This document shows positions 46,801-49,800 of a stretch of DNA of 64,000 nt, one piece after another. Source of the stretch: Octopus vulgaris. Taxonomy: Eukaryota. The DNA is taken from the NCBI GenBank assembly GCA_951406725.2, contig OX597830.1:48050001-48114000 (forward strand), read 5' to 3'. The notes under the pieces were generated by a model. It was not told where the DNA came from. It searched no databases and saw only the letters and a list, made by a program, of their open reading frames with translations. Each line of letters begins with the position of its first letter. Position 1 is the stretch's first letter. The translations under genes were made by a program, and so were the position numbers.

Positions 46801-49800
46801 GTATGTATCTATCTATCTATCTATCTGTCTATCTATAAATCTATCTATCTATCTATATATCTATCTATCTAATTTGGTATTGCGTCCGTACCTTCATATG
46901 ACATTGGACTTAACCAATGATAGAGCCAAGTAAATCAAAGTCCTGGCCTCAATATAACAGACTAACACATTTTTGAAGGTGGTGCCTTAGTCTTGTCCAA
47001 CTGACTGTGTATAATTCCAACAAAATAAATAAATAAAAACAAGAAAATGACGCCCTTACCTCTGTTTATTTCGGTGTAAGTGCAATTCTTGTAAGAATGC
47101 AATTCAGCGGTCCTATGATCTACAGTTGACAAGTAGCATCTTTTGTAATTATAGTTATAGTCAAACGATTGGCAATTTGGTTTTGCTTCGCAATGAAGCA
47201 GACATTGCGTGTAATTGAAGTTAGAAAAGGTACCCAAATTATTGTTTAAATACAGACCAGCTTGGTCAATAAATTCAAAAGGACATCTTCCTGTAAGAAG
47301 AAAATAGATGAATCAAAGTTGTCTTTTATAGTTTTTCGTAATGGTGGTGGGATTATTTCACGTTGTATAGTGTTATTATTTTTGAATAATTAGAAATAAT
47401 TAATAGATATATTTTCTACTCTTTAATAGATATCAATATTGTGATAATATTGTGATGATAAAAGAGATAATAATAATAATAATAATAATAATAATAATAA
47501 TAATAATAATAATAATAATAATAATAATAATAATAATAATAATAATAATAATAATAATAATAATATTAATAATGATAATAATAATTATAATAAATTATTT
47601 TGTTAGCCATGATCGCTCACATAAAATAACATTGAATGACATGCAACAACATAACAGACAAAAACGGGACGATACAATGGGTTTTACGGCGTGTAAACAA
47701 TAAATAACAAGTAAATCAAACAAATAAAAAAAAATCCCAATAGGGGAGGCGCTTTAAGGTCCTCATGGAAAACCCCACAAAAGCCACGGGTGCCTGATCT
47801 ACAGGGCAAGAGCCCTTCTTTAATTCCCTTTTATTGTTTATAGGTGCGCGCTCAGAAATGGTCATTTTGCACTGGACATTTACAATTACTACAAGGCAAC
47901 ACTTCCCTCTCCACCCCCCAAATCCCTTTCAAATGAAACTTGATGAAGTTGGTGAGGGCTTGACCAAAGAGGAAAGTCTCTGACTTTATGAATCCTGTTA
48001 CCGTCGGGCAAGTCCCCTGCATTATGTGCATAAGCCCGTCATTCTATTGGAAACTGCCTCCGCGGTGAATAGTTTCCCATCGGATCATATCAACACTTTA
48101 TTAGTAGCACGCTTCATCTCAGCTAACATAGTTTTACCCCTGCCGAGCCGTTTTTTCTTGGTAATTGCTGAAATTGACCGCTTGGATTGTTTCTTTTTTG
48201 CAGCAAGTTTTAAATCCCCTTTAAAAATCCTGTTCATTGACGATTTCGAAATATCAAGAACTGTTGCAGCTTTTCTTGCATCCTGCGGGGATTTCCGTTC
48301 ATTCGTTTCTTCACACCGTCAACATTTCAATTGTTCGCTTCCTACAAGGAATTGGCTTGCTAGAGCTTGTAGCGGACTCCATATATTGTTTCCAGGTATT
48401 GAACACTGTTTTACGACACACATTCAACTGCTCTCAAAGCGACAATCTGGTCATTTTTTGCTTTCAACGCCATGTTTGTTTGCAAACCAGTTTTAGACGA
48501 ACGAAACAATAGAAACATGAACAAAAGACATAAGCAAATCTTTACGTTAAATGTAGATATTACCTGAACCGATATTCTTTAGGAAGAGTTTTACACACGG
48601 GTAAATCTTTCTGGGGCACTCTGGACATGAATGACAGATATAGAAAAGAAAGAGAAGAGCGAGAGGGGGAGGGGAGAGAAAATGAATGAGGGAGAGAGAA
48701 AGAGAAAGAAAGAGAGAGAGAGAAAGAGAAGAGATATAGAAAATGAGAGAGAGAGAGAGTTAATCAGGATTGTGGGCGATTATGATTTGATCCAGTTTGA
48801 GGGTTTTCATTCATTTGTGAGTAAGTTACCCTACTTTTTCCCCATTTTCTTTGATTTATATTTAAAAAATAAAATATGTTTTACACATTCAGTTAAGCAT
48901 CTTGTGTAATTATTGTGCGTAATTTTAAAAACTCTTATCATATTCTGTTTTATTATAAGATCCCTTTTCGTCTCCCTCACAAACTGATGTCATCCATACA
49001 CAAATATTACACACCAGACATGCATTATTTTCATCATCAAATATATTTAGAATCTTCTCTGTTAGTCACATGACAAAACGGTCTTATAAAACTTTACATT
49101 TTCTCTTCCCTCCTCGGTAATCTTGTGTCTCAATCCGTTTCTAAATTTTCTGCTAAACACATCACTAAAAACTTTATTAGAACTTTAACTCTCCGGAATG
49201 AAAACTCTACAAAAAATTATTTTCCAACACACGCTAATCTACATCGACCAGATAAATCGCAGACAATTTTCAAATGCCGACAGTATTGTCACTCTTTGGA
49301 CTAAAACATAGAATACAAGTCAAGGAATGAAATAAACACAAAAAGATTCAAATTTGTTTACCGTCTCCATTCTTGGTCGGCACAGATCTTCTCAACTGAT
49401 AAAAATGGGTATTATATTCACATATTAGCATCATCTCTGTTGAGTCTTCTTCGTATAAAACACAGCTTGGACTTATCGTTCTGCTCACGAAGGATTTACA
49501 TGCAGAAGTTTCAAAACAACTCTTCGAACAGTTGAAGGCATCCACGTCAAGTGTCATCAATGTTTTGGCATCTTTCAGATCACATTTTGGTACTTTCATA
49601 AAATACTTCAGATATCCAACTGTAACAAAGCCAGGCAAATTAAACAACCAAAATACGAAGACGAAAATAAAACATTGTGAAAATAGATAATAATAAAGAT
49701 AGAGAATATTAAATGTTTGAGGATCAGCATTGATATTTTTACCAGGAAGAAGTGATAGAGTTGATACTACCATAGTGTAGGTACAAAGATCTTGGGATAT

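Follow-up and report, generated by a model that had tools for sequence, protein, structure and literature searches.

In several systems with a divergence peak, including exon 5 of the red and green opsin genes, the protocadherin clusters and CEACAM32, one diverged exon lies among introns that are similar between the duplicates. Such a peak is described as a signature under gene conversion in the part of PMC3924837 available to us, and the pattern reported below fits that description; the available part of PMC7042247 reports conversion in introns and not in ligand-domain exons. Here we describe a comparable exon in Octopus vulgaris. The window analysed, that is, the whole stretch of 64,000 nucleotides (assembly GCA_951406725.2, contig OX597830.1, forward-strand positions 48,050,001 to 48,114,000), holds two genes, A and B, for proteins with three tandem PAN/apple domains (PAN1, PAN2 and PAN3), and the element in question is exon 4 of gene B, which encodes PAN2. 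Whereas the divergence-peak systems have two variants, the octopus family has approximately 25, and its excess of replacement changes continues in the youngest pairs. The domains share the fold of the N-domains of plasminogen and HGF and of the apple domains of factor XI and prekallikrein (PF00024; match to 4a5t with Z 12.2 and a root-mean-square deviation of 2.0 over 75 aligned residues), here as three tandem modules. In contrast to plasminogen-type and contact proteins, the family has no protease, kringle or ZP domain, is 13–25% identical to the solved domains and forms a variable set of 25 genes.

Exon 4 codes for the middle, variable domain in an octopod family of approximately 25 three-PAN paralogues. 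We consider it likely that its excess of replacement changes stems from selection that favours divergent binding specificities among recognition proteins predicted to be secreted, and that gene conversion keeps the rest of the genes alike. The family, the selection and the exchange between exons are, with high confidence, shown by the data presented below. The two copies of the exon in the window are:

47060..47290, minus strand: gene B exon 4 (231 nt, phase 1-1), hypervariable domain PAN2 (Pfam, fold match and spliced contig)
11917..12147, minus strand: gene A exon 4, PAN2

A recount of these exons, both 231 nt long, agreed with the earlier note on this DNA: 39 nucleotides differ (16.9%) and the residue is changed in 24 of the 76 whole codons. 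As had also been noticed, both frames are open, the AG/GT splice ends are intact in both copies, five cysteines are common to A and B, and the changes gather towards the C-terminus, 25 of the 39 falling in the 3' half of the exon. A sixth cysteine is present in B only. The pair scores 36.5 and 40.1 bits against Pfam PAN_1 (gathering threshold 21.4) and thus belongs to the PAN/apple domains. The low divergence stated for the neighbouring domains was borne out, with 7 of 85 codons differing in PAN1 and 9 of 62 in PAN3. The contrast between exon and intron is real as well, but had been drawn with the most favourable yardstick: the intron 3' of exon 4 (3/90 nt different) is the most similar flank, while the 5' intron differs at 11 of 127 nt and all aligned non-coding DNA at 520 of 9268 nt (5.6%), a level that exon 4 nevertheless exceeds (p=2e-9). 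The description of A and B as young paralogues suits the surroundings of exon 3 (1/200 nt different upstream, 9/255 within the exon), but not the region upstream of exon 6 (34/193 nt different), nor exon 4, for which the nearest copy is L003 in the case of A (11 nt apart) and L002 in the case of B (26 nt apart). On these grounds, together with the exon trees, A and B were rejected as sister genes for exons 4 and 6. An assembly error in exon 4 of B was ruled out, contigs of four public runs holding the exon or long pieces of it with 0–1 differences. At window position 47240, runs X1 and X3 have C in place of T, which turns codon 17 from the Asn private to B into the Asp typical of the family; this is likely an allele. 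The sixth cysteine of B is at codon 69, next to a second N-glycosylation sequon at codon 68 (window 47081–47089, codons 68–70). Sequons of this kind differ across the family, and 5 of the 26 PAN2 exons have none.

Grouping by coordinates, with the three exons in order, gave 25 three-PAN genes on contig C17 (one chromosome), two of them in the window. The underlying genome searches yielded 32 matches for PAN2 (112 candidates), of which 26 are full-length on C17, 26 for PAN1 (51 candidates), 25 of them strong, and 30 for PAN3 (45 candidates), these counts being lower bounds. As in a diversifying multigene recognition family, the 25 genes are clustered, open paralogues: they fall into four clusters at 44.8, 47.9–48.4, 57.0–57.2 and 68.7 Mb, and all 81 exons on C17 (26 for PAN2, 25 for PAN1 and 30 for PAN3) are open. 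Over the 25 genes, mean identity between copies is 0.50 for PAN2, compared with 0.78 for PAN1 and 0.82 for PAN3. Nine columns are invariant among 21 aligned PAN2 copies, and one copy carries a 15-nt in-frame deletion. One PAN2 and five PAN3 exons, which are unplaced in genes, are left out of the 25-gene tests described below.

Site models applied to the whole family support diversifying selection on PAN2. The likelihood-ratio test (LRT) between models M1a and M2a gave 110 for exon 4, placing 38% of sites in a class with a ratio of replacement to synonymous rates (dN/dS) of 3.6; the corresponding values for exon 3 (PAN1) were 60 and 19% of sites at 4.4, and for exon 6 (PAN3) the LRT was 0, i.e. 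there was no positive selection. The class with dN/dS above 1 is hence confined to part of the protein, namely PAN2 and part of PAN1, and does not extend to PAN3. The LRT for exon 4 was 82–113 under five other frequency or multi-hit settings, 111 between M8a and M8, 37 when site-rate classes were combined with multiple hits and 39 for the 12 youngest genes; split into three segments with their own trees, the exon still gave 19, 32 and 33. Among 26 null simulations, 20 of them with mosaic trees, the largest LRT was 12.3 and one exceeded 5.99; the real data, put through this pipeline as well, gave 104.

Counts in close relatives point the same way. Ten sister pairs show 28 synonymous and 145 replacement changes in exon 4 (p=0.0014, or 0.021 with the most synonymous paths). 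In the eight closest pairs, a set chosen post hoc by removing the two deepest pairs, the counts are 7.7 and 72.3 (p=3e-4, rising to 0.013 if the synonymous fraction is set to 0.20); the proportion of differing synonymous sites (pS, 1.6%) matches that of the adjacent introns (27/1509, 1.8%), whereas replacement sites (pN, 5.4%) differ three times as often. Among 12 young genes, divergence is 0.094 at four-fold sites, 0.106/0.055 in introns and 0.188 in exon 4 as a whole. Seventeen of the 24 residue changes between A and B fall on the 27 sites with a posterior above 0.8, a comparison that is partly circular. Taken together, these results support family-wide diversifying selection on PAN2, with replacement sites outpacing synonymous and intron sites. 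PAN1 had been used in the earlier note as a yardstick; its low divergence between A and B stands, but it is not a neutral control, since it carries selected sites of its own. A separate example is provided by L016 and L015, which lie 24 Mb apart on C17 (44.87 and 68.75 Mb): their adjacent introns are identical (0/189), and exon 4 has 14 differences, nearly all replacements.

A number of observations weigh against this interpretation. The A/B pair by itself is not significant, either by the Nei–Gojobori method (NG86; dN 0.198, dS 0.178, p=0.51) or by maximum likelihood (dN/dS 1.79, LRT 1.66), and its pairwise dN/dS, at 1.1 to 1.8, was dropped as proof of selection; the selection suggested earlier from this pair therefore holds through the family-wide models and the close pairs, not through A and B alone. 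NG86 means of dN/dS over all pairs of exon 4 are 0.78 for the 14 local genes and 0.60 for the 26 exons. Measured by synonymous changes, the tree of exon 4 (length 2.61) is two to three times as long as those of exons 3 and 6 (0.82 and 1.36), so that part of the excess reflects older ancestry. For the ten sister pairs the count test gives p=0.12 at a synonymous fraction of 0.20, and for the eight closest pairs the excess is smaller when 1.5-kb flanks serve as reference (649/17215, 3.8%; p=0.007). The codon models are our own code, checked only by its null simulations. Finally, no canonical exon 1 was found for B up to the next gene.

The last point is shared by the gene containing L004 and, together with the 15-nt deletion and NG86 means below or near 1, would suit relaxed constraint on exon 4, or a mutation hot spot confined to it, in copies that are redundant or decaying. 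However, a site class at 3.6 is impossible under relaxation, and all 26 PAN2 exons are open and retain the nine invariant columns. A hot spot should raise synonymous divergence too, which is not so in the close pairs. We regard either process as a very improbable explanation.

Diversifying selection on PAN2 operates alongside exchange between the paralogues. The trees of exons 3, 4 and 6 conflict, the tree of the other exon being rejected in all four comparisons listed out of six (approximately unbiased test, p<=1e-5, 5000 replicates); conversion or recombination is therefore also at work. In the exon 3 tree A and B are near-sisters, and in the exon 4 tree L003 is the partner of A, and B falls with L002/L004. 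Two local genes have a very distant PAN2 (41–43% identity to B) beside a PAN1 at 83–84% and a PAN3 at 84–87%. Each of the PAN2 sequences of O. bimaculoides has one paralogue as by far its best match (56/75 and 58/76), while their PAN1 fits many copies equally, and the PAN2 types are thus older than the split from that species.

This raises the question whether conversion is the only cause, exon 4 of B or its 3' half having come from an older paralogue with no selection involved. A closer donor elsewhere, which the earlier note had named as a sign of conversion, does exist for the 3' half of B: it differs from L002 at 8 of 114 nt and from A at 25 of 114, the 5' half being nearest to A and L003 (14/114). 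Moreover, 21 of the 24 differing residues of B, and 22 of the 24 of A, occur in other paralogues, so that not all changes arose on the branch of B after the A/B duplication. Breakpoint tests on seven triplets placed a break inside the exon in two of them, with uncorrected p values of 0.017 and 0.004, and the path-averaged synonymous changes between A and B (7) exceed the intron rate (p=0.011–0.047). On the other hand, just three A/B codons differ purely synonymously, synonymous sites of the close pairs evolve like their introns, simulations on mosaic trees do not reproduce the selection signal, and exon 6, which is under the same exchange regime, lacks it. Short tracts inside exon 4 were not firmly shown either: a test of the kind of the pairwise homoplasy index (PHI) gave p=0.001 for all sites and 0.19 for third positions, and the longest-tract test, with a best uncorrected p of 0.02 among 55 pairs of 11 genes, was not significant after correction, for which reason such tracts were set aside. 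Exchange between exons is thus demonstrated, the evidence for a breakpoint within exon 4 is suggestive, and conversion as sole cause, to which we give a small probability, is largely refuted. The earlier note had treated selection and conversion as competing readings; in the data on the whole family the two find support together, not either alone.

The PAN2 model of B (mean predicted local distance difference test score, pLDDT, 93) was compared with solved structures. It fits the PAN fold, a helix (residues 26–35) on a five-strand sheet (4–12, 19–22, 41–45, 50–54 and 63–74), with Z 12.2 to plasminogen and 12.0 to the HGF N-domain, followed by MIC4-A5, kallikrein and SML-2 (Z 9.5–9.8) and by LAPP (Z 8.4); the plant self-incompatibility receptor complex was also among the matches. 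The whole-protein model is mediocre (pLDDT 61). Selected positions are 9, 13–15, 20–24, 32, 36, 45–50, 52, 61–62 and 64–70, position 45 being changed in six of the eight close pairs, and they probably form one surface. Five cysteines are conserved in exon 4, and an invariant one in the exon 5 linker is a possible sixth, its putative pairing being the outer disulfide of the six-cysteine apple subtype.

By sequence, the best matches among solved structures are the apple lectins TgMIC4 and SML-2 of apicomplexan parasites (E 3e-7 and 4.5e-6). Two of the selected positions, 45 and 52, correspond in the alignment to an Asn and a Tyr in the hairpin of MIC4-A5, which we take to be galactose-pocket residues, and PAN2 may work like an apple-lectin binding face. 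Sugar binding by MIC4 requires K469, according to the part of PMC6608980 available to us. The position aligned to it (PAN2 54, with inferred numbering and alignment E values of 0.16 for MIC4-A5 and 4.5e-6 for SML-2) is Ser in 21 of 21 copies. The key lysine of MIC4 and SML-2 thus appears to be absent from PAN2, and the domain is not assigned as a MIC4-type lectin.

Evidence for expression comes from public sequencing runs. One contig from a run presumed to be RNA matches 47060–47291 with one difference, and its loose ends fit the neighbouring exons of B, namely the end of exon 3 and the beginning of exon 5; this single low-depth contig supports transcription and splicing of B. A second contig presumed to be RNA covers 47068–47226 without differences. 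Altogether the exon was present in 4 of 23 runs, two of them presumed RNA; next to none of it was seen in the other 19, which is no evidence either way. The N-terminus is hydrophobic in A and in the database models, as judged by eye, and the family proteins are predicted to be secreted.

The same evolution could also be that of salivary or venom proteins binding prey molecules. The match to LAPP is relevant in this respect, as this leech PAN protein binds host collagen, and exons outpacing introns are typical of venom gene families; the octopus proteins are, in addition, small, cysteine-rich and predicted secreted. Against this, the salivary-gland section of PMC7656900, as far as available, names serine proteases, reprolysin and hyaluronidase and no PAN proteins, and the supplement of the O. 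vulgaris salivary proteome PMC7693380 had no match to 'apple' or to five accessions, a weak negative as identifiers may differ. We consider a venom or salivary role unlikely.

A reproductive role, in sperm–egg or spermatophore–oviduct recognition or in the egg-coat matrix, appears similarly doubtful. PAN modules are present in ZP-type matrix proteins, the plant self-incompatibility receptor complex is a fold match, and in P0077, from an orthologue pair of close species in a young cluster, PAN2 differs at 7 of 74 residues and PAN1 at 1 of 85. However, four of eight proteins labelled O. sinensis have a PAN2 identical at 75–76 of 76 residues to a copy in this genome, so that the diversity is mostly between paralogues and not between species. 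Classic gamete-recognition proteins, unlike octopus PAN2, vary between species.

The six-exon layout was established by comparison with the database protein P0001: two exons encode the predicted signal peptide, followed by one each for PAN1, PAN2, a linker and PAN3. All six were found for gene A and exons 2–6 for gene B. The remaining features are as follows:

49362..49619, minus strand: gene B exon 3 (258 nt), PAN1, in which fewer sites than in PAN2 are under selection across the family
50086..50121, minus strand: gene B exon 2, rest of the predicted signal peptide
41314..41409, minus strand: gene B exon 5, linker with the conserved Cys; its start fits a loose end of the spliced contig
40622..40812, minus strand: gene B exon 6, PAN3 and stop, without positive selection
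35387..35417, minus strand: gene A exon 1, with the ATG and the beginning of the predicted signal peptide; fits the N-terminus of P0077
31099..31134, minus strand: gene A exon 2
30315..30572, minus strand: gene A exon 3, PAN1
4339..4434, minus strand: gene A exon 5, linker
3473..3663, minus strand: gene A exon 6, PAN3 and stop
50020..64000, no strand: DNA preceding B; it is a copy, inverted and at about 95%, of the corresponding upstream DNA of the gene whose exon 4 is L004

A search of the genome with exon 1 DNA gave 29 matches, 12 of them in the local cluster of 14 genes and none for B or the L004 gene. For B, blastn and local alignment over window 50125–64000 and L087 scored within the shuffled range, and comparison with five other upstream regions did not reveal the exon. 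Two head-to-head pairs, B with the L003 gene and the L011 gene with the L004 gene (window 50125–64000, C17:47981001–48001000, L088/L089), are inverted copies with one canonical exon 1 per pair. Judging by coordinates, a canonical exon 1 is likewise missing from two genes of other clusters whose upstream DNA is similar. Just 5' of exon 2 of B, on the minus strand of window 50186–50232, an ATG opens a run of 15 hydrophobic codons that leads to a weak donor, and a similar stretch is present in A; the stretch in B could replace the missing first exon, or could have arisen by chance in intron DNA rich in T. The introns of A and B contain retrotransposon-like reverse transcriptase frames, recognised by eye (22435–26465, 42600–43420 and 7420–7923), with 98% identity between 25649–26724 and 42602–43689. 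Retrotransposon-like insertions lengthen intron 3 to 18 kb in A, compared with 2 kb in B. A 21-bp tandem repeat (window 12355–12586) in intron 3 of A, just 5' of exon 4, is absent from the equivalent place in B.

Database proteins of the family labelled Octopus vulgaris and O. sinensis are identical to copies in this genome, and are annotated only as 'uncharacterized' or 'Apple domain-containing'. Among the 19 of 61 database matches looked up, those relatives whose alignment spans the three-domain layout wholly or for the most part carry the label Octopus or Argonauta, and a wider range is possible. In P0001 and P0004 only PAN-clan families reach the cut-off, with no protease/trypsin, kringle or ZP domain. 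The public model P0005 is a fusion of two neighbouring genes from which one PAN2 has been left out. In P0078 the end of PAN1 is that of one paralogue type and PAN2 that of a different type, as a result either of faulty annotation or of genuine exon shuffling. Tandem duplicates of the PAN3 exon, approximately 760 bp apart, are present in two genes (L081/L068 and L078/L071) and are possibly alternative last exons, and orphan PAN3 exons occur at L074, L063 and L070. Weaker PAN matches at C10:23.39–24.29 Mb (including L027, L029 and L030) and at C17:26.69 Mb (L056) suggest further PAN clusters. Among the database matches there are also octopus proteins that combine Sushi domains with as many as 14 PAN repeats (P0009), as well as a distant group of three-PAN proteins from O. 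bimaculoides (P0012, P0018).

Literature on PAN or apple domain proteins of octopus and cephalopods, the 2015 octopus genome paper not being covered, contained no account of the family; the supplement of PMC10142993 had no matches, and the ESM Atlas only generic PAN clusters. In the part of PMC7656900 available to us, 'PAN domain' is a label in the text of Figure 1 on expanded octopod families. That expansion is a domain count only, with 'PAN' absent from the main text, and may concern other PAN genes. The three-PAN family therefore appears to be undescribed, although its mode of evolution is already well known.

In the process that we favour, selection combined with exchange, duplicates would exchange DNA, which would even out introns, PAN1 and PAN3, and selection would keep distinct versions of PAN2 and fix new replacements on the face of the sheet and in the loops; the two together would leave a divergence peak on one exon. 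PAN2 would set the specificity, PAN1 would tune it, and PAN3 would serve as a constant scaffold or anchor. We infer a role of the family proteins in binding or recognising ligands, the most likely target being a changing biological surface. Surfaces of microbes or parasites rank first, though with somewhat less than an even chance; prey, gametes or the egg coat, and other targets are each unlikely candidates. It is conceivable, if speculative, that the family constitutes an undescribed octopod recognition repertoire of secreted three-PAN binders with a variable head on a constant frame, whose exon-sized PAN2 cassettes are swapped between genes and refined by selection. Octopuses would then have a germline-encoded set of proteins for binding to microbes, parasites or prey, and the scaffold is not known to have a role of this kind in molluscs. 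Strong positive selection limited to particular domains is a mark of molecular conflict, and the immune, venom and mating molecules of octopuses are thinly catalogued. With 25 natural PAN2 variants on a near-constant frame, the target of these proteins is directly testable.
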